NCBI GenBank assembly: GCA_976226885.1
Contig: OZ320316.1
Span: forward strand, 60,512,001-60,576,000
Origin: Iphione sp. A-MEVVRFRX5
Lineage: Eukaryota
Length of the DNA stretch: 64,000 nt
Reading direction: 5' to 3'
Under the pieces are notes generated by a model. The model was not told where the DNA came from, ran no database searches, and was given only the letters and a program-made list of their open reading frames with translations. Both the position numbers and the translations under genes were made by a program. Shown here in pieces: positions 23,118 to 60,900 of the stretch. How positions within the stretch are numbered: the first letter of the stretch is position 1; each line of letters starts with the position of its first letter.

Positions 23118-23595
23118 CCAGGAGGAGTATTCGAGAGTGGTCGAGGGCATCAACGGCGACTTCTTTGATGGTCTCTCACCCTGGAGGAGTATCCCGGGAG
23201 TGGTCGAGGGCATCAACGGCGACCTCTCTGAAGTTCCTCACACCTTGGAGGGGTTGACCGGCAGTGGTCGAGGGCGTCAACGGCGACCTCTCTGAAGTTC
23301 CTCGCACCTTGGAGGGGTTGGCCGGCAGTGGTCGGGGGCATCAACGGCGACCTCTCTGAAGTTCCTCACACCTTGGAGGGGTTGGCCGGCAGTGGTCGAG
23401 GGCGTCAATGGCAACTTCTTTGATGGTCTCTCATCCTGGAGGAGTATCCCGGAAGTGGTCGAGGGCGTCAACAGCAAAGTCTCTGAAGTTCCTCGCACCT
23501 TGGAGGGGTTGGCCGGCAGTGGTCGAGGGTGTGAACGGCGACGTCTCTGAAGTTCCTCACACCATGGAGGGGTTGGCCGGCAGTGGTCGAGGGCG
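23118..23595. repeat. 63/64-bp tandem array (~7.5 units, two subtypes) in the Tigger 5' subterminal region
   Basis: GACCTCTCTGAAG recurs at 23221, 23285, 23349 (64-bp period); variant units begin GACTTCTTTGATGG (23158, ~23413). Confidence 0.9.
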
Positions 23596-23702
23596 GTCCC
23601 CTCCCTCTATCATACATAAGGAGGTCCAGACAGCACCAGAAATCACTCTTCTCCTGGATTCCCGTGAAGACACACCTCCAGACCACTCCAGACCACTCCA
23701 AG

Positions 23703-25238
23703 ATGCCCAGAAACGAACTGTCCCTTGGTGACAAGGTGAAGCTCCTCAAGGTCTCCACTGGAAGAAGCCAGAGGAGCCTTGCTGAAGAGTTCAAGATAGG
23801 GAAGACCCAAGTCCAATGCATCCTCAAGAGAAAGAGGGAAATCATGGAGCAGTATGAGAAATCACCAGACCCCTCAGTCAAGAGGCACCGCTACTCCACT
23901 GACCTCTCTGACCTGGATGAAGCCTGCTACAAGTGGTTCTGCAGGATGAGGTCACTGAACACCCCCATCTCAGGGCCTGCCATCCAGAAGAAGGTCCTGA
24001 CCCTGAGCAAGGAACTCAACCTGCCAGACTTCAAGGCCTCAGTGGGGTGGCTGCAACGCTTCAAGATCAGGCACTCCATTGGGGCCTTGAAGGTGTGTGG
24101 GGAGAGTGGTGGTGTTTCTGAGGTGGCAGTGGAGGATTGGCTCCAGCAACTCCCTGAGAAGCTCAGGGGATATGCCCCCAGGGACATCTACAATATGGAT
24201 GAGACCGGGCTCTTCCATAGGATAATGCCAGACAAGACCCTTGCCCAGAAAGGATCATCAGCCAGTGGATTCAAGAAATCCAAAGAAAGGATCACTCTCT
24301 CTCTGTGTTGCAACATGGAGGGAGAGTTTGAAAAGACCCTGGTGATAGGGAAGGCCCAGAAGCCCCGGTGCTCCAGATATGTGGACATGTCTGCACTCCC
24401 TGTCACTTGGAAGGCAAACTCCAGGGCCTGGATGACATCCTACATATTCCAGGAGTGGGTGCACAAATTCAACCAGAAGATGAAAAGGCAAGGGAGAAAG
24501 GTTCTCCTCCTCCTGGACAATGCCCCCTCACATCCACATGATATGAGGCTCAGCAATGTGGAGATGGTGTTCCTCCCTCCACATGCTACCTCAAAGCTCC
24601 AGCCACTGGATCAGGGCATCATCCAGAACCTGAAATCACACTACAAGAGCAAGCTCCTCAGTTACTTCATCCAGAAGGCTGACTCCACTGAGGGGCCCAT
24701 AGACCTTCAGTCCCTGATGAAGTCTGTGGATCTTCACCGGGTGGTCTACTGGGTGAGGGACTCACTCCAGCAGGTGAAACCAGACACAGTCAGGAAATGC
24801 TTCCTCAAAGCTGGAGTGAAGATTCCTGATGAGCCCAGTCCAGTGGAGGAGGAGGAGGAGGAGGAGGAAGAAGATGAAGAAGCAGAGTTGGTGAGGAAAG
24901 CACAGAGAGTCCTCCCTGTGGTAGATCCATGCCTACCAGATGATTACTGTGGCATGGATGCAGGTCTCCCAGCCCACAATCAGGATGTGGACTCAGACCT
25001 GCTGCCAAAGAAGGATCATGAGGAAGAGGAAGAAGAAGAAGAAGAAGACACATCACCACCTCCAATCACCCATGCAAAGGCCATGGACATGATGGAGCAG
25101 CTGAGACATCATTTTCTCCATCATGGTGCCAACACCCTCCTGGAGGCCCTATTGACCACCATGAACTCTTTTGACAAGCATGTACAACAATCCAGGAAGA
25201 AACAAAGCACTATTGACTCTTTTTTTAAACCACAGTGA
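23703..25238 (+). CDS. pogo/Tigger transposase (511 aa; HTH/CENP-B-like N-terminus, DD30D catalytic domain)
   Basis: MPRNELSLGDKVKLL...(HTH), 'WFCRMRSLNTPISGPAIQKK...FKASVGWLQRFKIRH' (CENP-B-type HTH), catalytic NMDETGL / LLDNAPSH / QPLDQGII with 30 residues between the last two Asp, C-terminal PIP-box-like QSTIDSFF. Confidence 0.95.
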   Translation: MPRNELSLGDKVKLLKVSTGRSQRSLAEEFKIGKTQVQCILKRKREIMEQYEKSPDPSVKRHRYSTDLSDLDEACYKWFCRMRSLNTPISGPAIQKKVLTLSKELNLPDFKASVGWLQRFKIRHSIGALKVCGESGGVSEVAVEDWLQQLPEKLRGYAPRDIYNMDETGLFHRIMPDKTLAQKGSSASGFKKSKERITLSLCCNMEGEFEKTLVIGKAQKPRCSRYVDMSALPVTWKANSRAWMTSYIFQEWVHKFNQKMKRQGRKVLLLLDNAPSHPHDMRLSNVEMVFLPPHATSKLQPLDQGIIQNLKSHYKSKLLSYFIQKADSTEGPIDLQSLMKSVDLHRVVYWVRDSLQQVKPDTVRKCFLKAGVKIPDEPSPVEEEEEEEEEDEEAELVRKAQRVLPVVDPCLPDDYCGMDAGLPAHNQDVDSDLLPKKDHEEEEEEEEEDTSPPPITHAKAMDMMEQLRHHFLHHGANTLLEALLTTMNSFDKHVQQSRKKQSTIDSFFKPQ

Positions 25239-25648
25239 TTTTTAAACATTGACATCTATTTATTCATAACATACTATCTATTGATTTCTTAATCTTATTT
25301 TTACTCTTATCTATATGCTAGAATAAATGGGCACTTCAGTTTGAATTATTTTGCTTTGTTTTTTATTTTCTTTAATTTTTTTATATCATTATTTTACTCT
25401 CTTGAACCTTTAATATGTATTATTGAACACTAAACCAATTGATTTCTTTATATCATATGTATTTTTCTCTATTGAACCTTTAATGTGCATTATTGAACAC
25501 TAAACCAATTGATTTTTGTGGTAGGGGAGTCAAATTATTGCTTTCCGACCATACTCACTATTCCGACCATCACTTGGGTCGGCCCAAAATGGTCGGAAAG
25601 TAAGACTCTACTGTATATACTTGTATGAATGTAAAAGTCTTCTTTCAG

Positions 25649-25763
25649 GGGAGGGTCCATTAATCATCATGGTGGCCGAGGAGAGACTCGGAATCATTAT
25701 TGGAAGCATCATTGGAGGCATGTTGCTCTTTGTTGCAGTCATCATACTTTATGTATTGTGCCG
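25649..25763 (+). CDS. Transmembrane-coding exon of a type I membrane protein (host gene)
   Basis: Acceptor TCTTCTTTCAG, donor CG|GTAAGT; phase1/phase2; encodes GEGPLIIMVAEERLGIIIGSIIGGMLLFVAVIILYVLCR (~23 hydrophobic residues). Confidence 0.75.
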
Positions 25764-25926
25764 GTAAGTTTACAGAAATCATACATGCACGTGTGTTACA
25801 TCACGGAGCAGGGGGAGACAGGCTTTTAAAGGGCATTGCCCGTGTGTGGGGGCGATGGTGGTGATTTGCTGGTCCCGCGGTCTGCAACCAGAACCCAAGA
25901 AGCAAATCATCTGAGATCATACATAT

Positions 25927-26353
25927 TATAGTTTCTACTTGGGTTCAATAAAGAACTGACAACTCTGAGTCCTGATTCAAAACTGTCTTTATTCAGGTTC
26001 CCTCTCATATTTATATCTTTTCTCCAATCAAGGCACTAGCCAATCATCTGTCAGTATCAGAGTAAGAGAATACATTGTTACCTTCTTTAACAGTCCTTTC
26101 AACTAACCTACCAATCAGGAGAGGGCAAAGTATCACTTTTGGGCTGTGGGACCACAGCCGAGTGCTGCCGATCCAATCACAAGAGAGCTTTGAGACTCCA
26201 GGGTAGTTTGTTTTAAATCCAGGGGTGGCTGTGGTACCACAGTGACCCTTAGTGCATGTGCACCGAGTCCAGTACTCCTGCACTTACAGGGCGTGCGCCC
26301 GTACCTCCACCTGTGGCACCACAGCTCGAGGCCGGCTCCTGCATACCACTACA
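25927..26353 (-). repeat. 3' LTR (427 bp)
   Basis: Matches 35863-36338 except ~6 transitions and a 49-bp deletion; one terminus mutated (TA instead of TG on the + strand); three CTGTGGnnCCACAG palindromes, CCAAT boxes, minus-strand TATAAA and AATAAA. Confidence 0.97.
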
Positions 26354-26366
26354 CTCTCCCCTCTTT
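26354..26366 (-). promoter_or_regulatory. Polypurine tract (PPT)
   Basis: Minus strand AAAGAGGGGAGAG immediately 5' of the TGTAG start of the 3' LTR. Confidence 0.9.
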
Positions 26367-26603
26367 AAATTACACCCACCTCTGAGAGATGGGGCGAAGT
26401 ATTACACCCTAGAAGATCAATCTAGGAACAGCAATTCTAACTCAATCTCCCGACACTATAGCCACTAGGTAGCTTCCTTAATTTTAGCACCAATGAAATT
26501 TCTCTCGCCGTCACTACTTAACACCTGCTAAAGTTTTACAATGCGTCTAATCCCAAAAGTATCTGAGTGTCCCTGAGCATGCAGTCTTATAAGCCTGAAA
26601 TAC

Positions 26604-26785
26604 GGCTTACGGCCGTGGTAGTTCAGTAACACAGTCATATCAAATGAACTAAGGCTTACGGCCGTGATAGTTCAGTGCAACAGTCATATCAGATGTGGAG
26701 GTATGTAGTCCTCTGAATGTGAAGTAAGGCTTACGGCTGTGGCAGTTCAGTAAAACAGTCATATCAAGTATGGGGGCTTAAGGCC
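26604..26785. repeat. Three and a half spaced copies of a 39-nt unit in the Gypsy 3' untranslated region
   Basis: GGCTTACGGC(C/T)GTG(G/A)(T/C)AGTTCAGT...ACAGTCATATCA at 26604, 26653, 26728; partial at 26775. Confidence 0.85.
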
Positions 26786-27053
26786 GCAAAAGTCCAACCA
26801 ACCAATCACATAAAAACACTATCATACTTTGAATTCAACAACGGAGAAGCCCGTGTTGGGCGAAACTTGACCTCTACGTAAACTCTGAATCTGGCCTCAC
26901 TCTCTTGGAGGAAAGTTTGATCACCGGGATGATATCAGTCTCACGTGGAGTTTGAGGCCCGAGCAACGACACCAACTCAACAAAAAAAACATTCTTTACC
27001 CGCTCGGGCCCCTACTCACCACCCTGTGGAGGTCGGCTGTTCTACTCCTCCGT

Positions 27054-28502
27054 TCACATCACGTCAGTGTTGGTGCGACGCTGCTGAGAGGGGCGGGCCT
27101 CCAGGAGGTCCCACACAGTGGGGTCCTCCGCTCGTTGTTGGACCCGTGCCGCCTGTGCCTCCCGCTCCCAGGTGTCGAAGGCCTCGCGCCTCGAGGCCGC
27201 CGTCGCCGCGTAGGCCGGATGCGGGTCTTCGAGGAGGTTGGTCGCTGCTTCGATCGATCGGTTGTGCCAGCGGGTGACACGTTCGCAGTCGCCCCACTCG
27301 AGCCGGTCAGGGATCCGCATCCCTTCCAGCGCGAGGACCGACCGCCTGACCAGGGGGTCGATGAGGTGTTGCGGCGATGCCTCTGACTCCGCCAGGGCCA
27401 GAACCCACGCCAAGGAGGAACTGGCGATGAAGCGCGAGGTTGGGCTCATCTCCATCCAGCGGGGAGGGGGCCATTCCAGCCGCAGGGGAAGGCGTACCAT
27501 AGTGGGAACCATGACGGCTCGCCGTACCGCCGGGTAGGGTGGCACTCGGCCGTCCAGAATCTCCCGGACTAGACGGGACAGTGGGCCGAGCATGGGCGTG
27601 GTGAGTTCCCGTTCTGCCAGTCGTTGAAGGTGTCCTGGCGGGAGGGCTGCCTCCCGGGGCCGATCGCTTGATGGACCTCGAGAGGGTCCAGAGGCCTCCC
27701 AAGCCGTCAGGGTGTCGAGGAGGGCGGCCAGACTCCAGTCAGGGGTCAGGAGGGATGGCCCCCCCCTCGCAGTAGACTGGCGACTGACGTGGGCGTCCCT
27801 GGAGTGGTGCTGCTGCTTCATCGTCCACCGCTGCCGGCTCTGGTTGACCTCCCCGGGCCTCCGGTGACGGGGGATACACCCCGGCCCCACGCATAGGGCA
27901 CTTGTGGTGCATCCCGGAGATACCCCCGCCCAGCAGGAGCTGGAGGCATGGGCGGAGTGCGGTCGCTCCCTACGCTGCCCTCCCCAGAGTCGGAGGGGGA
28001 AGCGGGACGTCCAACGGCGGCAGCGGCCGGTGAGGTGCGCCAGCGGGCTCGGCCAGAAGCATGGGACGGCTGGGACTCCGGCGGGGGTGTGGACTCCATT
28101 GCCGATGAAGAAGATGGTCCGAGAGGCCCGGGTGGAGGCCTGGTTGCCGGTGTCCGAGGTGCACCGTGCCCAGGCAGGAGAGAAGACGGTTGCCGCCCCC
28201 AGACGACGCGCCGCTCGGGGAGGCTCGGCCGAGGCTCCAGGATCTCGTCTACTTCCGCCGGACCCATGAAGGCGCCGAGAGTGGCGGGTGCCCGGCTCGC
28301 CTAGGACGCTGCGACAGAAGAGGCAGTCCATCTGTCGGTGTCGACGGCCCCCATGCTGCTCCTTCTGATGACACTCCAAGGACTCCCCCGCCCAATACAC
28401 CCGGTGGGGTGTGCAGAGCTCACACCAAGCTGTACCAGGGGGCAGGGGTTCTCCCTCCTCCACCTGGGGTGCCGGGGGACGTGCCACTTTCTGCCGGGGC
28501 AT
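27054..28502 (-). CDS. Gypsy accessory ORF: two atypical C2H2 zinc fingers, Pro/Ser-rich linker, helical C-terminal domain (probably frameshifted in this copy)
   Basis: ATG at 28502 right after a pyrimidine tract + CAG acceptor; CELC-x14-H-x4-H and CLFC-x10-H-x4-H; alternative frame 28267-27818 looks like the true linker; C-terminal 'LEWPPPRWMEMSPTSRFIASSSLAWVLALAE...' block; no signal peptide or TM. Confidence 0.65.
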   Translation of the reverse strand: MPRQKVARPPAPQVEEGEPLPPGTAWCELCTPHRVYWAGESLECHQKEQHGGRRHRQMDCLFCRSVLGEPGTRHSRRLHGSGGSRRDPGASAEPPRAARRLGAATVFSPAWARCTSDTGNQASTRASRTIFFIGNGVHTPAGVPAVPCFWPSPLAHLTGRCRRWTSRFPLRLWGGQRRERPHSAHASSSCWAGVSPGCTTSALCVGPGCIPRHRRPGEVNQSRQRWTMKQQHHSRDAHVSRQSTARGGPSLLTPDWSLAALLDTLTAWEASGPSRGPSSDRPREAALPPGHLQRLAERELTTPMLGPLSRLVREILDGRVPPYPAVRRAVMVPTMVRLPLRLEWPPPRWMEMSPTSRFIASSSLAWVLALAESEASPQHLIDPLVRRSVLALEGMRIPDRLEWGDCERVTRWHNRSIEAATNLLEDPHPAYAATAASRREAFDTWEREAQAARVQQRAEDPTVWDLLEARPSQQRRTNTDVM

Positions 28503-29039
28503 GCTGCTTGCCACAGAGAAAGACGGCCAGCCAGGGTGGTTGTGGAACCACAGGCTTGTTGACAGTACAGGTTAGGTCAAGACGTGGGGCCACAGACTAC
28601 AACACACAGAGATGAACAGTCAGCGGCAGACAATCACTGTGGTACCACGGACAACAAGCTGACTGCACTTGGGGTGGTCACTCAGCCGCCCTTACCTGTC
28701 GTCGGAGATGGAGGTGCGAGGTGCGGCGAGGCCACAGCGCGGTGATGGCGACTGCCGCTCCTCGCCCAGTCACCCGATCCTTCTGCAGCGTCTGCCGGAA
28801 ACCGTGGTCTGTGGTTCCACGCTCACGATCAGCTTCCTGCTTCTCAACGCCCCGTCGGATGTGTCCACGCATAAAGACTTATTTTTGGCACTGTCCCCCG
28901 GCGTCCCCGCTGTTCTTCTCAGCCTCTTCTCTCCCTCACGTGGCCAGCTGTGGTGCCATGGGCCGCCATTGATCACGTCTCGCGAGATCACGGGTTCTCT
29001 CGCGCCCCGTGAGATCCCGCATCTCGCGTCCGTATCTCA

Positions 29040-29445
29040 TCTGTGGGCCCACAGCGAAACTGCTTACTCTACGACTGCTGAAGATTCATTCTTTTTGTAC
29101 TATAGGGGACTGGTAGGGATAGGACAAAAACTGTGCTACACCACTCTATTTCCCTTCCTTCGGCTGTGGCACCACAGGCACTTTCGCTGCGTTCTCCCTC
29201 TAGAGGGCGACACCTCCTCCCCGCCTGTGGTTCCACAGCCCATTCACCTGATACGTTGTATCGGCTATTTCCCCTGATTCCACCAATCACTCGTTACGTT
29301 GGATTTCTGTGGCACCACAGTACGAGTGGTTACCCTCCCAGCCAATCGCTCGAAAGCCAATGATATCTGTGGCACCACATACATGATCTTCGCTGCCCGC
29401 CGTAGCCAATCATCTTGGCCCACTGCGCCCCCCCCAATATAAATG
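29040..29445. promoter_or_regulatory. Putative bidirectional internal promoter of the Gypsy accessory region
   Basis: CTGTGGnnCCACA(G/T) palindromes at 29041, 29164, 29225, 29307, 29367; CCAAT at 29283, 29342, 29357, 29406, 29434; TATAAA at 29438-29443; flanked by divergently oriented spliced ORFs. Confidence 0.6.
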
Positions 29446-29677
29446 AGATGGGCTACGGCCAGCCTGCTTCATCTGGACTCTTGCTGCACCCCACCAGGCT
29501 TCTCTATCCTTCCAGCTACCCCTTCCAGCTACCCCAGCTCAGGTACCCGTCTTATGTAGGAATGGCAACTGTTTAACATCTTTGAACTAGCTGAACCAGA
29601 GACAAATCATAGTTTTTTTTTTGTTTTGTTTTGTTTTTTTTTAACGGTTTTCTCCCTTTTTCAGCCTAAACCCAGCC

Positions 29678-30547
29678 ATGACCAATCAAGGGACCGCGTT
29701 TGGGCACCTTCCTGCTGCGGTTCTTCGGCCTTATCGCCTGTGAGTGTTTGGATAACTCTTCCTCTACTTCCACTCGTTCTAAGTGTTATCCAACATCGCC
29801 CCTTCCTGAAGTTTAGTGTCAGCCAGATCCATCTTCATTTTTCCTGCCTATTTTCTCTTCCATAGGCTCCGCTATCGACCCACCCTGCCCGGGTCAACCC
29901 CCTCCGGCGTGAACATTCACACAGAAGGGCCGGTGGTACGAGTTTTCGGCACCCATGAGATCATAGATGCCCCCTTCATCTTGCCTGTTCCGGGCCGTCT
30001 GATCTTCCTTGGGCCGCTTCACGTGATTGACCTGGTGGTACGCCCTGTCGCCCCTCCTGGCTCGGCGCGACCCCCGCCAACGATGCCCGCCCCATCAGAC
30101 TGGGCCGCTTGCTACACCACCCCGTTGCTTCCACCGGCCTCTCCCTCCTCCAGTGCTTCCGGGTATGGCACCGACAGCCCTTCATCCCTTACCAGCAGTC
30201 GTCTGGACCCCTGGGGGTCCCACCAGGACCTTTCCGCGATGGGCGCCTCACCACCCCCGGCAGACGGATCGGGTCGCTCCTCTCCAAGCCCACGGCCGTC
30301 ACCCACCCCGTCGGGAGAAGACTCTGTACCGCCTCCGTCTCCGGCCGTCACGAGGTCAGAATGCACTACCCCCGAGACAGGCGATGACATCTCCTGCAGC
30401 TCCTCACACCTGGGGACTTCCCCTCCGGGAGGCCATGTGCCCTTCGCGGCGATTTCGACTCCCGCCCTGGCAGCCTGGTATCGTCAGTTTCGTTGGGGCG
30501 ACGCTCCCTTCTGCCCTATCCTGGTATCTTCCTCCGATGAGGAATAG
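29678..30547 (+). CDS. Antisense spliced accessory gene of the Gypsy element (CDS join 29678-29739, 29866-30547; ~247 aa, Pro/Ser-rich)
   Basis: Non-coding exon 1 ~29470-29542 (CAG|GTAC); acceptor TTTTCTCCCTTTTTCAG|29665; gccATGa at 29678; donor CT|GTGAGT 29739; acceptor TTTTCTCTTCCATAG|29866 in matching phase 2; stop 30547; AATAAA 30614-30619. Confidence 0.75.
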
Positions 30548-30613
30548 GACCTTAATCAGTAACTACACTCCCCATGCTAAGTACTCTGTAGCTGCGTGGC
30601 TGACATACCTTGA

Positions 30614-30619
30614 AATAAA
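30614..30619 (+). terminator. Polyadenylation signal of the antisense accessory gene
   Basis: AATAAA ~67 nt after the TAG at 30547. Confidence 0.6.
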
Positions 30620-31024
30620 TTTCAACTAACTAATTTGTCCCCCGTGTTCGTTCTATGTTCTGTTCGCTCTCAGACTTAATTATAAACACCCTTCCCGTCG
30701 TCCCGCCGCAGCGACCAGAGGACATAACCCGACCAGGTTCTAATTCCTTCGCCCTGGTCCGAGTTGGCTCCACCCCTGACAGTGTGCCGGCTTGCCCAGA
30801 GGACAAAGCCTGGCCAGACCTCCGTCTCCTTCTGGCCCAGGCCGGCTCCACTGTCAGTCCCACCTCCGTGGTCTGTCGACCTCTCAGCTACCACCAGCCT
30901 ACACTGCAAGCGGCCGTAGTGCTGCCCTCCCTAACGGGAGCTTCCTTCGCACACTATGGTTCGCCCTCCGACAACATCTCCGGAGCTGCCTAGGTCCCCC
31001 CCCGGAGGACGTGCCCCCACTCCT

Positions 31025-31355
31025 CCCCCTAGAGCTTTTGGGTACCGCACCCGGGGATGTCCAGCCTCCCCCTCTGGAACTTTCGGGTCCCGCACCCGAG
31101 GATGTCCAGCCTCCCCCCCTGGAGCTTTTGGGTCCCACACCCGAGGATGTCCAGCCTCCTCCCTCTGGAGCTTTTGGGTCCCACACCCGAGGATGTCCAG
31201 CCTCCCCCCTCTGGAGCTTTTGGGTCCCACACCCGAGGATGTCCAGCCTCCCCCTCTGGAGCTTTTGGGTCCCGCACCCGAGGATGTCCAGCCTCCCCCT
31301 CTGGAGCTATTGGGTCCCGCACCCGGGGATGTCCAGCCTCCCCTCCCTGGAGCTC
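31025..31355. repeat. ~45-bp minisatellite (~7 copies) in the tail of pol
   Basis: GGAGCTTTTGGGTCCC(A/G)CACCCGAGGATGTCCAGCCTCCCC units; give 15-aa repeats in several frames. Confidence 0.95.
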
Positions 31356-31365
31356 TCTGCTCTCC

Positions 31366-34300
31366 CTAGTCCGACCTCCACTGGAAGATTTTTATCCTTT
31401 TGTTACGAGCTCCCTTCCTTATTCGCGCGCCGCCGCCATGACTTGATCCAACGAGGTATCTACCCTCGATACAGTCGTAGGCGATTCCGATGCACCACCT
31501 TGGGGCGAGCCGGGCTGCCCGTTGGACCACCAATCGCTCTGGGTCCAGTACCTTAGTAACGAGCCATGGACCCGTCCAGGGCAAGTATACTTTAGGGCTC
31601 TTCCCTCTGGGTGGTTGAGCTTCGTGTAACCACGCCACGTTCCCTTCCTGTAGGGGTTCCCCTTTTGCCCGGCGATCGTATCCTCTAGCCTGCATCCGTG
31701 CAGCCTTTAACAAGTGTTCCCGGACCGTCTGGTAAGCCCTCTTCAGCTGACGTTGAAGGCGCTGCACCCACTCTGGCATAGTCACCTGTTCCTTCCCCTC
31801 CCACTCACTAAGAGGGAGGCCATCCATCGCATGCGCTGGCAGGACCACCTCCCGACCGAACATCAGGAAGTTGGGTGTGAAGCCAGTACTGGCTTGGGGG
31901 GAAGCTCGGTAGGCCATCATAAGCAGTGGGAGTGCTTCATCCCAGTCGTCGCCGGTATCGTAGCAGTGGGCTTTAATCATTTTCCCTAGCGTGCGGAAGC
32001 TCCTTTCGATAAATCCATCCCCCTGGGGGTGTCTAGGGGTCGTCTTGGTTCGCTGGATTTGCAGGAACTCACACAGAGCAGAAACAACTTCACTGCAGAA
32101 GTTGGTTCCTCTGTCGCTGTGGAGCTCCATGAAACATCCATAACGAGAGACCACCTCCTCCACTAGTACTTGTGCTATCCGGGTTGCCTTCTGATCAGGC
32201 AGTGGGAAGGCCTCTAGCCATTTAGTAAAGTGGTCCCCCACCATTAAGATATAACAATTGCCCCGCTTGGTATGGGGGAACGGACCGGCCACGTCCATGG
32301 ACCATCTCTCCATTGGCTCCCCGGACATATAAGTGCGCAGCGCCGTCTGTGGACGGAAGGGATTTACTGTGAGGAGAGCACAGTGACATTTCGCACAGAA
32401 GGTTTGTATAACTTGTTGCATCCCAGGCCAGTAATACGCCAAGGACACCAGGAAAGTGGTGCGGTCTACCCCTAAGTGGCTACCCATTCGGCCTTGGTGG
32501 ATTTCCTCGATAGCCTTGACTCGTCGCTGTGCAGGGAGTACCAGCTGCAGGCGGGTTCTTGGGGCTTCGAGCTCATGCCACTGCCGGTATAGCAGCCCCT
32601 CTTGTACCACCAAACGGTCCCACTGCTGCCATAGTTTCTTGGCCGCCCTCGACAAGGGGGAAATATCCTCCCACTCTGGCCTACCAGATGTATCCTCCTT
32701 CAGCATCAGGATAGGTCCAATATCTGGGTCGTCCAGCTGCGCACCCCGAAGGGCCCGATCTGTCGCCCCCTGAGTGCGGCCTCGGGTGACGACTCGTACC
32801 TCCACCCCATGCTCCTGCTTACACTGTTTACAAGGCATTCGGGATAGAGCATCTGCGTTACCGTGCAGGCGCCCTGGTGGGTGCTGAAGGTGGAGGTGAT
32901 ATTGACCGATTCTCTCCAGCCATCGAGCTAACTGCCCCTCAGGGTCCCGGATACGGCTCAACCAGCTAACCGCCCCATTGTCCGTCTGCACCGTGATCTC
33001 CTGCCCGTATATAAAAAAATGAAAATGTTTCAAAGCAGCTACCACCACCAGCAACTCCCTCCGCATCACACAATACCTCCGTTCCGGTGGCGTGAGACTG
33101 CGGCTAAAGTACGCGAGGACTACTTCCTGGCCTTCCTGCTCTTGGGAAAGCACAGCTCCTAGCCCCACATTGCTGGCATCTGTGTCCAAATAAAAACGTC
33201 CCTTAGGCATCGGGTAGCCCAGCACGGGGCTGGCCTGTAATGCCCGTTTCAGAGATTCGAAGGCCTCCTCTTCTTCGGGGCCCCAATAAAACCGGGTCCG
33301 GGGGCTAGTCAGCCGGTGTAGGGGTGCTGCTAGATCGGCGAAATGAGCCACCAGACGGCGGTAGTAGGAGCAAAGTCCGAGAAAGGCTCTTACGTTGGTA
33401 GTGGAGGTCAGCCTTGGCCATTCCTGGATACACTGCACCTTCCCGGGATCCGCTGAAATTCCCCGATAGGACACCCGATGCCCCAGGAAAGGAACCTCCT
33501 CAAGGAACAAACGGCATTTAGCCGGTTTCAATTTTAAGCCAGCAGCCTCAATTCGAGAGAGCACCTGATCCAACCGGGCTAGCGTCTCCCCAAAATCCCG
33601 CCCAAATACCAATACGTCGTCCAGATAGACTAGGCATTGCTCCCAGGTCAGTCCCCTGAGCACCGTGTCCATTAAACACTCAAACGTAGCAGGAGCGTTG
33701 ACCAACCCAAACGGCATCACTGTAAACTCATACAACCCAGAGGATGTGGTGAAGGCCGTCTTTTCCTGGTCCCGCGGATCCATCTTAACCTGCCAATAGC
33801 CCGATGCTAAGTCTAGCGAACAAAAGTACCGAGCTCCCGCCAGTGCGCTTAACGAATCATCCACTCGGGGTAGGGGATACGCGTCAACCTTCGTCTGTTG
33901 GTTTAGTCTCCGGTAATCGACACAGAAACGAGTAGTTCCATCCTTTTTGCGTACCATGACTACGGGACTTGCCCAGGGGCTCTGGCTCACGACAATGACC
34001 CCGGCCTCTGCCATTTCCCTTACTAGTTGCTGCTCTTCCTGTCTTCTTGACAGGGGCAGGCGCCGAGGTTGCTGTTTAATGGGACCTGATTCCCCCATGC
34101 AAATACGATGTTGCACCACGTCCGTACAACCCAAGTCACCTTTGTGTTGTGCAAAGGCCCCCCTGTGCCGTTCTAGCACCACCCGCAGCTCTCCTTGTTC
34201 CCCTTCAGTGAGATGAACTGTCTTAGTGGCCATCAACTCATCTATCAAGGTCCCTGTCCCCACCTTTGTGGTAGCCACTTTCAGGGGGTGGTTCTGGAGG

Positions 34301-34986
34301 CAGTCAGTAACCTCCTCCCTCTGCGCTGGCGAGCCAAGGGCCAGAGACGTCCCCTGTTGGATCAACAGTTCCCTCTCCCCAGTGTTCCACACGGGCAGCA
34401 CCTGGCTTACAACGCAACGCACTCCTACCACCCCTTGTAATAACTGATCCTCCTCTAAGCCCTCTACCAAGAATGGACCCTCTCCACTGGGAGACACTGG
34501 GATCCCCACCCCTTCCCCAGGGGGAACCGTAATATCGGAGGCTGCCCTCAGTACCTTAACCCCCCTGGTCTGTTCCTTCCCCCTAGGGGTCCCTCCAAAC
34601 AAAACCTCACCCTGTGCCAAGTCAATGACAATGCCATGCTGGGTCAAGAAATCTGCCCCCAATATCCCATCCCCTTCTATCTCTGCTAACAGGAAGTGGT
34701 GTTTGAATTCCTTTCCAGCAATCCCTACCTGCACCTCCTCTCTCCCTACCGTTGGCAGGATATGGCCCCCTACCCCCATAACCTTTACAGCAGCCCTCTT
34801 AACAACTGGGCCAGGGACCACACAGGGATTCATAATGGAAACTTCAGCACCCGTATCAATAAGCAGTAGGAGTGTCTTCTCACCACAGCTTACCTTGAGA
34901 TGTGGTCCCTGGCCGTATTCCATTATCACCTCCCGGTGGACAAATGCAGTCGGTGTCCCCTGGCCTACTGAGCCGACTGCTGTGTG
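31366..34986 (-). CDS. pol: Gypsy pol polyprotein (protease, RT, RNase H, integrase); C-terminus disrupted
   Basis: LIDTGAEVS (AP), YLDD (RT), DASNVGLGAVL...NADALSR (RH), H-H-C-C region, MDVAGPF / LHSDRGTNF / GFIERSFRTL (IN DDE), WTGPW (GPY/F). A 1-nt shift near 31520 restores 'RPKVVHRNRLRLYRG', followed by an in-frame TAG at 31460-31462. Frame is -1 to gag. Confidence 0.95.
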   Translation of the reverse strand, partial: HTAVGSVGQGTPTAFVHREVIMEYGQGPHLKVSCGEKTLLLLIDTGAEVSIMNPCVVPGPVVKRAAVKVMGVGGHILPTVGREEVQVGIAGKEFKHHFLLAEIEGDGILGADFLTQHGIVIDLAQGEVLFGGTPRGKEQTRGVKVLRAASDITVPPGEGVGIPVSPSGEGPFLVEGLEEDQLLQGVVGVRCVVSQVLPVWNTGERELLIQQGTSLALGSPAQREEVTDCLQNHPLKVATTKVGTGTLIDELMATKTVHLTEGEQGELRVVLERHRGAFAQHKGDLGCTDVVQHRICMGESGPIKQQPRRLPLSRRQEEQQLVREMAEAGVIVVSQSPWASPVVMVRKKDGTTRFCVDYRRLNQQTKVDAYPLPRVDDSLSALAGARYFCSLDLASGYWQVKMDPRDQEKTAFTTSSGLYEFTVMPFGLVNAPATFECLMDTVLRGLTWEQCLVYLDDVLVFGRDFGETLARLDQVLSRIEAAGLKLKPAKCRLFLEEVPFLGHRVSYRGISADPGKVQCIQEWPRLTSTTNVRAFLGLCSYYRRLVAHFADLAAPLHRLTSPRTRFYWGPEEEEAFESLKRALQASPVLGYPMPKGRFYLDTDASNVGLGAVLSQEQEGQEVVLAYFSRSLTPPERRYCVMRRELLVVVAALKHFHFFIYGQEITVQTDNGAVSWLSRIRDPEGQLARWLERIGQYHLHLQHPPGRLHGNADALSRMPCKQCKQEHGVEVRVVTRGRTQGATDRALRGAQLDDPDIGPILMLKEDTSGRPEWEDISPLSRAAKKLWQQWDRLVVQEGLLYRQWHELEAPRTRLQLVLPAQRRVKAIEEIHQGRMGSHLGVDRTTFLVSLAYYWPGMQQVIQTFCAKCHCALLTVNPFRPQTALRTYMSGEPMERWSMDVAGPFPHTKRGNCYILMVGDHFTKWLEAFPLPDQKATRIAQVLVEEVVSRYGCFMELHSDRGTNFCSEVVSALCEFLQIQRTKTTPRHPQGDGFIERSFRTLGKMIKAHCYDTGDDWDEALPLLMMAYRASPQASTGFTPNFLMFGREVVLPAHAMDGLPLSEWEGKEQVTMPEWVQRLQRQLKRAYQTVREHLLKAARMQARGYDRRAKGEPLQEGNVAWLHEAQPPRGKSPKVYLPWTGPWLVTKVLDPERLVVQRAARLAPRWCIGIAYDCIEGRYLVGSSHGGGARIRKGARNKRIKIFQWRSD

Positions 34987-34992
34987 TTTTCC
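34946..34992 (-). promoter_or_regulatory. Putative -1 programmed ribosomal frameshift signal (gag-pol)
   Basis: G GAA AAC in gag frame (34992-34986), 5-nt spacer, then perfect 8-bp stem GCAGTCGG/CCGACTGC; pol frame is open from just upstream of this site and is -1 to gag. Confidence 0.7.
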
Positions 34993-35831
34993 GACGGTTT
35001 AGGCCCTGCAGTGTTCGATGCTTGCTGTGGGGCTTTCGGGCAATCTCTCTTCCAGTGACCCGGTTGCTTGCAGATGAAACACAAATTGTCCCTGGGCCGT
35101 GACCTCTGAGGTCGCATTTCCTCCCGTAGTTTGGCAAACTCCTGCATTAGGACTTCCACCATGTCCTTGGGTGCTGGGCTGTTAGCATCCTTGTTGCCAC
35201 TTGCTTGTATGGCGTTCACCCTCCTAGCCGGGAACCGTTCTTTGATCTCCACTACCTGTAGTGCAGCCTCCATGGTCTTGCATTGTTCTTCTAGACATTT
35301 CAAATGCAGGTCATCAGGGAGCGCCCGTTGAAAGGCCGACACTGCCGCTAACTCTCGCGTCTCCGCACTCACATCGGGGTACGCGGTGCGTACAAGTCGT
35401 CGGACTTTATCAGCAAACCCCTTGGCATCCTCCCCTTTCTGTCTGCGGATCGTGGACAGGCCTTGCATAGCCGTCACTGGATTACGTCGACGTCCAAACC
35501 GCTTTTCCAAGGCGGCTACCCTGGGCTCAAAGTCAGCCTTGTCCTCCGACGGAAGGTCTCCAAAGTACATTCGGGCGGTGCCAGTCAACGACAGAGCCAG
35601 TGCTGAAGCTCTTGTGTTCAGACTCCACTTGCATGCATCTGCCCATTCGACAAACTGGACAATCCAACTGTCCCAGTCGACTACGTTGCCATCGAATCGT
35701 TCAGGTTTCATGGCATTGGTGCGCAGTGGCTCCTCTGGGGCTAGCACGTAAGGCTCAGCTTCTTCTTCATCGTCCGCATCCGGTACGCGTAGCTGTACCT
35801 CGTCGTCAACTGCCACAAACTTGGTAGCCAT
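34965..35831 (-). CDS. gag: Gypsy gag (288 aa) with CCHC zinc knuckle
   Basis: 'KPERFDG...WDSWIVQFVEWADACKW...LALSLTGTA' capsid-like region and CFICKQPGHWKRDC knuckle; ATG 13 nt after PBS. Confidence 0.95.
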   Translation of the reverse strand: MATKFVAVDDEVQLRVPDADDEEEAEPYVLAPEEPLRTNAMKPERFDGNVVDWDSWIVQFVEWADACKWSLNTRASALALSLTGTARMYFGDLPSEDKADFEPRVAALEKRFGRRRNPVTAMQGLSTIRRQKGEDAKGFADKVRRLVRTAYPDVSAETRELAAVSAFQRALPDDLHLKCLEEQCKTMEAALQVVEIKERFPARRVNAIQASGNKDANSPAPKDMVEVLMQEFAKLREEMRPQRSRPRDNLCFICKQPGHWKRDCPKAPQQASNTAGPKPSENTQQSAQ

Positions 35832-35843
35832 GATGTACAGTGG

Positions 35844-35861
35844 ATCCCACTTCTGACACCA
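35844..35861 (-). promoter_or_regulatory. Primer binding site, tRNA-Leu type
   Basis: Minus strand TGGTGTCAGAAGTGGGAT 1 nt from the 5' LTR end; this PBS sequence is the common tRNA-Leu-complementary type. Confidence 0.9.
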
Positions 35862-35862
35862 A

Positions 35863-36338
35863 TGTAGTTTCTACTTGGGTTCAATAAAGAACTGACAACT
35901 CTGAGTCCTGATTCAAAACTGTCTTTATTCAGGTTCCCTCTCATATTTATATCTTTTCTCCAATCAAGGCACTAGCCAATCATCTGTCAGTATCAGAGTA
36001 AGAGAATACATTGTTACCTTCTTTAACAGTCCTTTCAACTAACCTACCAATCAGGAGAGGGCAAAGTATCACTTTTGGGCTGTGGGACCACAGCCAAGTG
36101 CTGCCGATCCAATCACAAGAGAGCTTTGAGACTCCAGGGTAGTTTGTTTTAAATCCAGGGGTGGCTGTGGTACCACAGCGACCCTTAGTGCATGTGTACC
36201 GAGTCCAGTACTCCTGCACTTACTTCGTATAGCCAGTGCACCCCGACTGTGGCACCACACACTTCTGCGCACAGGGCGTGTGCCTGTACCTCCACCTGTG
36301 GCACCACAGCTCGAGGCCGGCTCCTGCATACCACTACA
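35863..36338 (-). repeat. 5' LTR (476 bp)
   Basis: TG...CA ends; four CTGTGGnnCCACA palindromes; minus-strand TATAAA 35946-35951 and AATAAA 35924-35929. Confidence 0.97.
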
Positions 36339-37374
36339 ATATATACGTGCATATATGTCAGAAAAACACGACAATTGAATGGGGGGAAAAGACACACCTT
36401 TAATACAGAGTAACAAGTAAAATAAACATAAAAACAAGGTAAAAATTTCAATGTGGAGTGTCGTTATAGAAGAACTACCATGGAGACGTATACACAGTTG
36501 CTTGAAGACAACAATACAACCGTTTTGCGACATATATATATAATATCTTATATCGATATATATATATATACGTAAGCCTATGAACCTCACGAGGTGGGGG
36601 GCAGGCCTGGGAGCATTGATCATGAGCCTGTATAGTGATGCATTCCAGTAAAATTTGGAAAACAATTACATACATGTAGGCTATGCTGTACGGGGGCTGT
36701 ATTTCACTATAGGCCCAATAGGTACATCTGTCCAAAATGCAGGCAAAAGGAGGAAACGGTAGTGTTTCCGCATGTCCATTGACGGATTCTGGTAAGAGAC
36801 TGCTAACAAACCAAAAATACTGGTATGTGGACATCGTCTCTGATTCACACAAAAAAACGGGCCCGGCACTATTTGAATGGTTGTTGGGGGTGGGGTGGAA
36901 CTCTTTTTTGTTTCAAACAGAAATCCTGATTAATTATATTATTTTTTATTATTGTAATCCCTTCCAGACCGACTGTGTGCCACTTTTTCAGATCAGTCTA
37001 TGGGCGGTCTGGAAGAAGTTAAAGGTATCTCTTGCGATAAATCATCCACGAGTTCTGTTTTTACTATTATTTGTGATAATTTGTAAAATAAAATGATAAT
37101 AAAGCATAAAAGCCAACCAGTCATTACAAGATGCAGCTACCTTGTATCTCGGTTGAAGTCAACCTTTCGGGGGGGGGAGGAGTTGGTTCGGCAGAACATC
37201 CCTAGTTACGGGAATACGGACAAACATGTATGTGCTCCTGTAAACAGAAATCTGGGACTATAAAAACAGCGGCTCCCTATGTATTTGAAAAATGTGTCTT
37301 TACATATATGATGTAAATAGGATGTTTTTTTGTTCCAATTCATGGCCGTCTTTCTTTTCGACTGACCCATGAAG

Positions 37375-57989: not shown

Positions 57990-60900
57990 CAACATAAGGC
58001 AGATTTACGTACCACCACCTTACATCTTGTTAAAGCAGTACAAGATGTCATATACCCCTCATATTGAGCCTGTCCAGTTTGACCAAATCTTGATTCTTTC
58101 TATACAATGAAGCCCTGGTAAAGTCAACAACCTTTCCCAAGACTGAAGCCACACCGTAAATGACATTGACCTGTTGACCCAAGACAGACTCAAGACAAGA
58201 AGTTACTTTAGTCACCCTAGACTCAGTGGGAGTGACCACCAAGTCAACAGAACTGATGGTATAACCTAGGAAAACAACAGACTGGGCTGGCTCTAAAGAA
58301 AACTTATCAAAATTAATGAAAAACCCTATAAACTGTAACAGCTTGACAGTCTTTAAGACAAACAAGGAACACTCCCATGCATCTCTACCAATTATAATGA
58401 TATCATTGAAGTAAGAAGCCACTACCACCCCCTCCTCCCTATGACAAGCCAATGGTGTAGTCATAATCTTCGTAAAGATTCTATGTGCAGATGACAAAAC
58501 GAATGGAAACACATCATACTGATTCACCTTGCCCTGCCAAGGGAATGCTAAATATTTCCTATGTAAAGACCAAACTGGCAGTATGATATGATGCATTCTT
58601 TAGCTCCACAGATGCCGTAAAACAACCCTCATATAAAAGAGGGTGTTTATTCTCCAAGGTTTACATTTTAAAGTGCTTGTACTCAATGGGCTTGTTTAAC
58701 TTAGACAAGTCCAATATCATCCAATAGTAACCATTGGGTTAAGGCCTCAGGAAGATATTGGACAAGAAAGCATCAGAGGAAACTGCTTCCAAAAGAGAAA
58801 TAGTTTTAATCTTAAGGTTAGACAACTCCTTCTATATAAATTGTGATTCAGCCTTTGAGAAAGGAATTGGCCTAGGCCTTACCTCTTGGCAGGGCAAGGT
58901 CAAAAGGTCAAGCTTATAACCTGACACTGCTTCTTGAACTTCCCTACCTCAAATGAGCCCAGGCCATTGCCTTCCACAGGAAAACAAGTCCCTGGCTAAG
59001 AAAGTGATTTTCTCCCCTAAGCCTGCACCTGCTGCTGTGCCTGCTGCACTGCCTTGTGGAGTTGCTGCACAGGAGTAAGGAGGTTGTCCAACAGAAACTT
59101 AGGAGAAGGAGGACAATCTTCTGAAACCAGCCTCTTAAATATGGCAGGGAAACTGAACCTCGTCCCTGTGCACTTTAACCAAAGTCTGAAAAGTGGACCT
59201 CCCCTCCAGAATGAGAGAGGACCAAAAGCTGTTGATCTTTTGCTACCCATAGACTTCCTCCCACATGGCACATAACAGGCCTGACTGCCCTACATGAAGC
59301 AATTAAACCTGTGCATGAGGTCCTGACTGACCTTCTGAAGGACACGTTTACATTCCTGCCCTCCTAGGATAGATTCATAAAAAGAACCTCCTTGAGGCGA
59401 CAGACCTGATGGCCATCAATATTTGAAGGGTGCTAATGACACATCTGTGTGTCCCCCAGAAAGTCTGCCTTGAACAGCTGAAGCAGTTTCTTGGCCAGAG
59501 GGATCACTGCCTCAAATAAAAGAGGCCCAACTTCCACATCGGTATCCATCCTCTCAAACAACACCAGAGAACTAGGCTCTGGCTCCTGCAATGCTACTGA
59601 GGACACAGAACCTGGGTCATTAACCTGTGGGTTCTCTTTTTCCTCCTCGTCCTTCCACTCCAACATTATGTTGAAGCCATGGGCCATATTCTGGCCAAAA
59701 GATGTTAACCATCTTTAACGTCCACAGAAAAAGAAAGCATTAGCTGCTGCTGTGCTCACATAAGTTGCTCCTGCGAGCTTGTCACCTGTTCTTGTGATGA
59801 CCAAACTTGCAAAGGTGCCTGAAAAATTGGCACTATTCCCCTAAAAATCATATATGCATGTGTATGTCTTTTTGCAAAGGGACCCCACAGAAACAAAATG
59901 TTGCTTCCTTGAGGAAAAGGTTAGGAAAAAAGGAACACAACAAAAATTTTCAACTTAACTTGGCTGAAAAAGATTTGTCAATGATTTTTTACCTCAGGGG
60001 TCAAAGATGGAATGTTGGGTGACTTTAAAAGTTTCTGAATGCCTTCATGTCAAATCAGACAAAGCTGATTGAGCTCGGCCAACAACTTAAGTCATACCTG
60101 CCAAACAATGTCATTAGCCCAACTTGAAACAATGTCAAACTTGAACTGGCATGGGTCAGAGATCAAAGTCATCGACCTCCACAATGATGGCCGAGCTAGG
60201 TCAACCACCAAAATTGTTGGCAAGGAATGGTTGAGTTTGGCTAAAAAAAGTCAAACCCAAGGATGCTTGAAGTTGTCCTGGCTGAGCTTCATTCACCAAT
60301 GCAGACCCCGACTGAGCTTGGGCCCTCCATGATAGTTGATGTTATCCTGTCTGAGCTTAATCAACCAACACATATTGACTGAGCTGGCGCTGCCAAGAGC
60401 GCTTGAAATTGGTCTGTCTAAGCTTGATCAAGGATGCTTCCTCCATGACCCCTGCTACAGACTTGATCACCCGAGCTGGAACAACCAAGGTTCTTATCAG
60501 CGTGATAGAGCATACCCCAAGCAGGGGGACACTTCCACAGCTGTTACTAACAATTGCATTCTGTCCTTGAAGTCAGATGTCAACAGACGAGGCTGACCTT
60601 GCTGGCTGTATGGACAACTGCATAACAATCAACCTCTCCAGTCTTTTCATACTAAGACTATCAACTGACTCATCATGTCTAGTTTCAGCATCCAAGGAGG
60701 CATTTAAATGTTTTGTGGATGTAGATAATGTGCGAGTCATTTTGGTATGCTTTGTTAAAGGAGTAAGGTTGACATGATGTGGATCATGCTTACTCTTTCC
60801 ACAATGAGTAGGGTCGACTGAATCATCCCAAGCACCCTCCACAAACAAGATTCATAAGATCAGAACAGAATAAACAAAGGGAGGGGTGATCCTGCAATGT
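57990..60900 (-). mobile_element. Decayed DIRS-1-like retroelement (gag and RT) in a PC intron
   Basis: RT remnant 58048-58596 'HRKYLAFPWQGK..Y...PF.LSSAHRIFTKIM...YFNDII...GFFINFDK..LEP.Q..FLG'; gag-like 'EVGPLLFEAV', 'FKRLVSEDCPPSPKFLLDNL' at 59000-59700; no YR seen. Confidence 0.8.

Follow-up and report, generated by a model that had tools for sequence, protein, structure and literature searches.

The window considered here is the whole stretch of 64,000 nucleotides taken from Iphione sp. A-MEVVRFRX5 (contig OZ320316.1 of assembly GCA_976226885.1, forward-strand positions 60,512,001 to 60,576,000). It harbours on its minus strand a young Ty3/Gypsy element of 10.4 kb in which gag is followed by a pol encoding protease, reverse transcriptase (RT), ribonuclease H and integrase (PR-RT-RH-INT), together with long terminal repeats (LTRs), a primer-binding site (PBS), a polypurine tract (PPT) and a target site duplication (TSD) of 4 bp, ATAT. 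Between pol and the 3' LTR lie two divergent open reading frames (ORFs), as an earlier note on this DNA had described. They belong to a sense gene, called A hereafter (28502-27054, minus), and to an antisense gene, B (29678-30547, plus), and are separated by a block rich in a short palindrome, the dyad, that recurs in the LTRs. The note had taken A for a zinc-finger DNA-binding factor and B for its cofactor. Comparison of the element with its relatives suggests that A likely binds the palindrome of its own family and likely switches on transcription of the element. The features of the element are the following.

25927-26353, minus: 3' LTR, with 3 dyads (26145, 26230, 26312)
26354-26366, minus: PPT, adjoining the 3' LTR
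26579-26767: degenerate short tandem repeats in the 3' untranslated region
27054-28502, minus: gene A, sense relative to the element, damaged copy
28695-28507: possible 5' intron of A, with a weak acceptor just before the A ATG
28503-29445: divergent promoter block of ~950 bp, between B and A
28541, 29042, 29165, 29226, 29308, 29368: 6 exact dyads of the block
28583, 28638, 28810, 28949: 4 near-dyads of the block
28962, 28978, 29200: a YY1-like word, TCTCGCGAGA and a CTCF-like word in the block (YY1 and CTCF being names we presume for these words)
29438-30619, plus: predicted antisense gene B, between pol and the promoter block
29438, 29542, 29543-29664, 29678, plus: TATAAA of B, end of its non-coding exon, intron, ATG
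29740-29865, 30545-30547, 30614, plus: second intron of B, stop, AATAAA
30975-31399: tandem repeat array of 45-46-bp units, behind pol
31366-34998, minus: pol (PR-RT-RH-INT), in another frame than gag and overlapping the gag end
34965-35831, minus: gag (ATG end 35831), one CCHC knuckle
35844-35861, minus: PBS, 12 nt before the gag ATG
35863-36338, minus: 5' LTR, with TATA at 35946, AATAAA at 35924 and 4 CCAAT upstream of TATA
36081, 36166, 36248, 36297: 4 dyads in U3 of the 5' LTR, upstream of TATA

The two LTRs differ by 4 substitutions and a 49-bp indel, the segment absent from the 3' LTR being the one that carries the fourth dyad. The PBS is presumably of the tRNA-Leu type. No env was found between pol and the LTR and no envelope family appeared among the Pfam matches; the third ORF starts with two zinc fingers and not with an envelope glycoprotein, which sets the element apart from errantiviruses. 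An Rfam scan of 25000-37000 gave no match. The tail of pol, formerly placed at ~30680, lies in fact at 31366, and its extreme C-terminus is frameshifted relative to sibling copies. The gap between PBS and gag ATG is short as had been claimed, although of 12 and not 13 nt, and it spans 9-14 nt throughout the clade. It had served as an argument for an internal promoter, a weak one when taken alone because a splice donor could lie elsewhere; yet a simple scan of R/U5, the leader and the gag start returned one donor candidate only.

The dyad is strongly enriched in the element. The word TGTGGNNCCACA is present 13 times in it and absent from the remaining 53.6 kb of the window, while Markov resampling gave a mean of 0.03 and a maximum of 1 (300 resamples). 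Three and 4 occurrences lie in the U3 regions of the two LTRs, in agreement with the 3-4 previously counted, and 5 lie in 29040-29445, where the description as a region rich in CCAAT, TATA and palindromes also held (5 CCAAT and the TATAAA at 29438). At the level of the genome, CTGTGGNNCCACAG was counted 2481 times versus 66 for its reversed control, and the word of a second family 2808 times versus 43. In the three most distant copies, the dyad arms differ at 12/240 positions versus 408/2194 elsewhere in the block. Moreover, six aligned copies, down to ~69% identity, keep the TATA, donors, acceptors and ATG of B, the upstream donor of A and most dyads. The YY1-like and CTCF-like words and TCTCGCGAGA (28962-29210) also persist in diverged copies, and one sibling copy has an inverted piece of pol inserted in its promoter block (L044:4608-4979).

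Two DNA searches retrieved 13 further close copies with 74-96% identity. Their LTR pairs are 97.7-100% identical (10 of the 13 as matched full pairs, plus one more full pair; in this comparison one copy had no 5' LTR in the fetched stretch and one was misplaced), and the TSD is of 4 bp in 11 of the 13 siblings examined. Protein searches of the same genome yielded 1040 first-look candidates with the N-terminal part of A, 4812 with its C-terminal part and 1279 with B, and all of the 150 candidates scored per query matched. The layout is kept by hundreds of relatives in this genome, at 30-50% protein identity, as judged from these sequence matches. A clade sample of 60 loci was assembled, 40 of them selected through A and 20 through B. 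The order pol, antisense B, block and sense A, with B and both A domains, was found in 55 of the 60; every A-picked locus has a B match (40/40) and every B-picked locus an A match (20/20). Fifty of the 55 also carry RT (75-87% identical to that of the window) and integrase (71-81%), and a single open frame runs across both A domains in 51 sampled loci. The A proteins are 30-44% and the B proteins ~28-35% identical to the window family. Pairwise Nei-Gojobori estimates gave for A a dN of 0.02-0.53 with a dS >1.1 or saturated except in one comparison (0.07/0.43), and for the beta domain of B values such as 0.016/1.04. By these estimates both genes are under purifying selection. Two distinct PBS sequences exist within the clade (L225-L244, at the base of the 5' LTR). 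Six loci (L166, L178, L189, L206, L215, L220) are without RT or integrase and keep B and a mostly open A; these derivatives look like non-autonomous elements retaining the regulatory module.

Gene A is a real, conserved two-zinc-finger gene according to alignment, model and profile matches. The protein starts with two C2H2-type fingers, followed by a helical extension that reaches about residue 147; a disordered linker then leads to the C-terminal domain, which is helical and bears a WPP motif. The fingers are two C-x2-C/H-x4-H units joined by a basic linker, whose ligands C27, C30, H45, H50, C60, C63, H76 and H81 are invariant in 26 A proteins. AlphaFold models both domains confidently (pLDDT ~80-95 over residues 11-140 and a large part of 341-500), with a beta-hairpin and helix in each of the tandem units, which supports the fingers. 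A and B matched no Pfam family, A scoring 15.8 bits against zf-C2H2_4 (cut-off 27), and the best Foldseek rows of A were finger-DNA complexes of CTCF and ZBTB7A, weak at E ~0.7-1. A profile search with A among 1.8 billion proteins gave 31 matches, mostly C2H2 proteins at profile positions ~20-83, precisely where the fingers lie; three of the 31 were to the C-terminal domain, two of these from Mytilus. The fold search with the C-terminal domain returned no meaningful match (best Z 5.5). In the same way, single-sequence protein searches with A and with B gave no matches, an Atlas search gave weak zinc-finger leads or none, viral and metagenome scans using the A alignment gave no matches and PDB sequence searches gave chance-level rows only. 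No Tas was present among the sequence or fold matches of A. The claim of a zinc-finger factor stands for the gene itself, and its reading of its own palindrome is argued for by the covariation described below.

The copy of A in the window is damaged. Finger 2 has lost its second half to a deletion near 28287, beyond which the frame is shifted until a small indel near 27770 fortuitously restores it; approximately codons 73-245, the middle third, are thus out of frame and differ from the siblings. The 482-aa ORF that the earlier note had read as the protein was consequently rejected as the true A and is partly an artefact of decay. Of the 14 loci read from the ATG, one (L053) has A open to its normal end. 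Splicing just before the A ATG was likewise discarded as a trait of the clade, the weak acceptor being mostly unkept in other families. The canonical splice signals reported earlier hold for B, which has two GT-AG introns and whose last acceptor before the conserved domain is at the same place in the 25 families printed (judged by eye).

Each family possesses its own version of the dyad. A de novo search found an 18-bp dyad in 47 of 51 loci, with two invariant G per arm and remaining bases that vary by family: CTGTGG, TCGTGG, CCGTGG, TATGTGG, TGGCGG, CTTGGG, TTTGGGT, TYGGGG, TSGTGT and TTGTGA. The block contains 2-12 sites per locus and the 3' tail 2-16, with 0 on the pol side in 40 of 47; the larger exceptions on that side, with 3-6 sites, are pol-less derivatives in which it probably includes the 5' LTR. 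Cross-scans between families were mostly diagonal, related words overlapping. Among seven mapped 5' LTRs, six have sites in U3 upstream of TATA, the seventh being without a matrix, and these U3 sites are tandemly amplified (4-9 per LTR). The palindrome common to U3 and to the internal block, first noticed in one element, is seen across families with a different word in each.

The family-specific variants covary with residues of finger 2, which points to the family's own protein as the reader of the word. The test corrected for overall A identity and used 23 representatives, to the exclusion of L209, whose finger region is frameshifted, and of the four L173-type loci; the window family was represented by the protein of L053 and the motif of the window. 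The four columns that best track the motif among 213 variable A columns are T72, G71, F62 and A75. Three of them, T72, G71 and A75 (ranks 1, 2 and 4), correspond to positions +3, +2 and +6 of finger 2, which we take to be canonical contact positions. The six variable canonical contact positions have a mean r of 0.21, a value reached by 0 of 20000 random column sets (to four decimals), and the recognition region has a partial r of 0.35 versus at most 0.28 in 66 control windows. The outer two variable bases of the motif each gave p ~0.005. In addition, R44, at +6 of finger 1, is invariant and fits the invariant G. The A N-terminus of L186 groups apart from its pol family and keeps that family's DEQS helix and TCGTGG word. 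Finally, prediction rules written before 40 more loci were fetched fit 7 of 7 new dyad-bearing A lineages (<80%; 50-79% identical to the nearest training protein). A linker code, in which residues before finger 2 were thought by eye to set the inner bases, was contradicted by L173 and did not reach significance for the individual bases.

A is moreover exchanged as a cassette between near-identical elements, as comparison of their sequences indicates. Elements whose RT-integrase and B have a dS of 0.004-0.2 can have a saturated dS in A, and nucleotide identity drops at A from 91-98% to 66-74% or to unalignable, then recovers. The exchanged span goes from a few hundred bases before the A ATG to several hundred past the stop. 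Cassette exchange therefore breaks the linkage of A with the LTR, and B segregates with pol and not with A.

B appears to be a real gene; because it follows pol, a role as target of A is more probable for it than one as partner. Its predicted protein of ~247 aa comprises a beta-rich N-terminal domain and a Ser/Pro-rich tail with conserved short motifs (SPDL/SPEV, LDPW, PRSPSP, DTP and an acidic end), and its last exon is open in 8 of 15 loci. The structure model is of low confidence (pLDDT 47, beta-rich start), the fold search gave no meaningful match (best Z 3.1) and the sequence searches run retrieved no B relative outside this genome. The role of cofactor formerly attributed to B found no support, given that B stays with pol when A is exchanged, that the related element L245 has no room for it and that the corresponding position in a sister clade is taken by an unrelated ORF, homology to which was rejected (0.3%). 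A run of 15-60 T lies in the last intron of B in nearly all families (L165-L219) and corresponds, on the strand of the genomic RNA, to an internal poly(A) tract.

Relatives of A exist beyond the clade. Unannotated multi-copy mussel (Mytilus) proteins, for example CAG2256847.1 and CAG2236996.1, have two N-terminal fingers and a WPP domain with a coiled-coil linker and are ~20-27% identical to A. Comparison with the A domain gave hhalign values of 92.7-95.5%, and a search with the mussel domain returned the window family at E 1e-4. One mussel gene model carries a piece of Gypsy integrase in front (E 3e-34 to the window pol), and these proteins would thus be explained as probable retrotransposon genes. 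L245, a metagenome contig, shows a complete Gypsy element that shares the PBS; its gag and pol are followed by a spacer of 600 bp and then by gene A, which is preceded by a splice acceptor. The sister clade (L258, L259, L263-L267, L291, L292, L296) has an RT 72-73% identical to that of the main clade (against 60% for the RT of L245), and an A of 27-33% identity with other finger residues. Its word, YTCCGA, is found ~6 times per kb over the whole element (gag, pol and A), full dyads being mainly in the LTR. Most sampled sister copies are without most of pol and keep gag and an open A. The layout is shared by related elements as regards A behind pol, in mussel and L245, but in L245 not as regards B and the dyad.

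In the proposed mechanism, basal transcription from the internal divergent block would produce A. The protein would occupy each dyad as a dimer, with its finger 2 contacting the outer variable bases and the invariant Arg of its finger 1 contacting the invariant G. It would then raise transcription of A and B in a positive feedback and subsequently that of gag-pol from the LTR, which would respond through its 3-9 U3 sites upstream of TATA. Activation is favoured because the U3 sites are tandemly amplified upstream of TATA and clustered at the internal TATA/CCAAT. Families would be insulated from each other because each uses a different word, and co-activation, co-packaging and exchange of the A cassette would be restricted to elements with a common word. 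B, as a target of A, may have a separate job tied to pol or to the host, possibly as an adaptor rich in short motifs, and its antisense orientation would let its introns survive reverse transcription. A wider proposal, advanced tentatively and with less than even confidence, is that an ancient animal Gypsy lineage runs a phage-like system of specificity groups, with an exchangeable zinc-finger transactivator cassette and a palindromic operator, in LTR and internal promoter, proper to each family, amounting to dozens of orthogonal pairs and thousands of element-controlled host sites. If this is true, dozens of pairs co-evolve in one genome and decide which elements co-activate and recombine.

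Several points weigh against binding and activation by A. Nothing in the sequence establishes activation as opposed to repression, and the dyad sites reach a few bases before the A ATG, inside the presumed leader of A, a placement that suits repression too. The inner two variable bases do not covary significantly with the contact positions (p 0.09 and 0.82), and the covariation is based on ~11 motif classes with common ancestry. Since a nearest-neighbour guess predicts the held-out lineages equally well, the fit of the rules reflects a recognition helix conserved within each motif class and not an independent code. The informal prediction for the L173 family was wrong at one base, and this family repeats TCGGGCCC, a largely non-dyad word, in its block and LTR. 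No repeated dyad was found in L245, and TGTGGT can be read on one strand in 12 of the 13 sites of the window family.

That A binds its own dyad mainly as a repressor, for copy-number or latency control of LTR and internal transcription, is an unlikely reading. It draws on the same motif placement and covariation, and sites running through the block up to the A ATG are as expected for negative autoregulation. However, the tandem amplification of U3 sites (4-9 per LTR) and the fact that high-copy young families keep A open are at odds with it, and an element would presumably gain more from amplifying the sites of an activator. It is a little less probable that the dyads are read by host factors, A having another job and the covariation reflecting linkage. 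TGTGGT, which we take to be the RUNX core, would be bound by RUNX-type factors and the other words by host zinc-finger proteins. The block, A and the 3' LTR are indeed physically linked, and L245 has A without the dyad; but the non-RUNX arm is also conserved, at least 8 words keep one spacing and would need as many host factors, cassette exchange unlinks A from the block and the LTR, and the signal is at finger contact positions and not across the protein.

An equally low probability is given to A being an anti-silencing factor that keeps the element free of methylation or heterochromatin, in the manner of VANC, whose family-specific words are described in the available text as lying in tandem arrays in non-coding DNA and evolving with the protein (PMC5735166). 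The observed/expected CpG ratio of the block, 0.78-1.33 versus 0.68-0.84 in pol (10 families), and the spread of the sister-clade word over the whole element would agree with such a role. Yet the main-clade sites are confined to promoters, and a lower CpG decay in the block was rejected, since in the window family the CpG transitions of the block core (0.20) are not below those of pol (0.13-0.15) and the LTR is depleted in CpG. C2H2 fingers can also bind RNA. The palindromes might in that case be RNA or cDNA hairpins involved in export, packaging or recombination and A an RNA-binding factor similar to Rev or to CERV of Cer1, for which the available text gives a precedent (PMC10309623), but this appears very improbable, as arms of 6-7 bp around a 2-4-nt centre are too tight, many sites are imperfect and the sites are concentrated in U3 upstream of TATA.

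Other features surround the element in the window. An uninterrupted pogo/Tigger-type transposase ORF (23535-25238, plus) with CENP-B_N, HTH_Tnp_Tc5 and DDE_1 domains lies ~700 bp from the element and is preceded by a 64-bp tandem array (23136-23594). A probable host exon at ~25650-25765 (plus) codes for a transmembrane helix, the Gypsy element being antisense in the next intron. Finally, an ORF fragment at 58051-58599 (minus) resembles by eye the RT of another class of retroelement.

LTR retrotransposons are thought to borrow the transcription factors of their host, and an element-encoded transactivator that binds DNA is characteristic of complex retroviruses. The clade described here appears to have evolved such a factor independently and to have diversified it into many protein-site pairs, and there is a real chance that it represents a distinct class of retrotransposon regulation. 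This opens the questions of how a transposon family may activate itself without waking its relatives, of how a two-finger code co-evolves with its sites, and of whether the dispersed sites, of which two words have 2481 and 2808 exact copies, let element proteins influence host genes. No description of this system was found in full-text searches of the literature, although subscription papers, Repbase reports and supplements outside that scope could mention the ORF. In the same way, the available parts of annelid-element and errantivirus surveys describe no zinc-finger ORF.

Extra ORFs, sense or antisense, are known in the slot between pol and the 3' LTR, as far as the accessible texts go (PMC7264820, PMC11963269, PMC5408684, PMC8220671). 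They include those of the plant elements Grande, RIRE2 and Retand/TRP28 (PMC7264820, PMC11963269) and the rotifer ORF3s (PMC5408684). The clade resembles them by its conserved ORF in this slot, which is antisense in the case of B as in Grande and Retand and is often so among them, by tandem repeats that lie close to pol and to the 3' LTR and by a suspected regulatory function, and a Pfam scan did not find TRP28 (PF04195) in B. Unlike it, none of them has, in the portions of these papers at hand, two divergent genes, C2H2 fingers or a cognate site that has been identified. Cer1, an LTR retrotransposon of the animal C. elegans, likewise encodes an accessory protein with a function, CERV, which acts on RNA export and for which the text available describes no DNA dyad (PMC10309623). 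VANC of Arabidopsis VANDAL transposons removes methylation and, according to the part of the source consulted, has family-specific target words in tandem that co-evolve with it (PMC5735166). Such short words in tandem in non-coding DNA are found here too, but VANDAL is a plant DNA transposon whose words are not dyads, whereas the present host is a Gypsy element, not a Mutator-like DNA transposon, with no protection from CpG decay seen.

The analogy with Tax and HBZ of HTLV-1 that had been put forward holds for the presence of one sense and one antisense accessory gene. Tax relies on the CREB of its host and the 3' LTR drives HBZ, whereas A has its own fingers and the TATA and first exon of B are internal, 3 kb from the 3' LTR. 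The closer parallel is Tas of foamy viruses, which binds directly, with response elements in the internal promoter and the LTR (PMC3798896, as far as its accessible text goes). In the present case the element is a Gypsy retrotransposon devoid of env, its protein carries C2H2 fingers and no likeness to Tas was detected, the divergent block would also drive an antisense gene, a single genome contains dozens of specificities side by side, and activation is proposed from the arrangement of the DNA. As with Tas, the same response element is present in the internal block and in the LTR U3, and a feedback from internal to LTR transcription is proposed.

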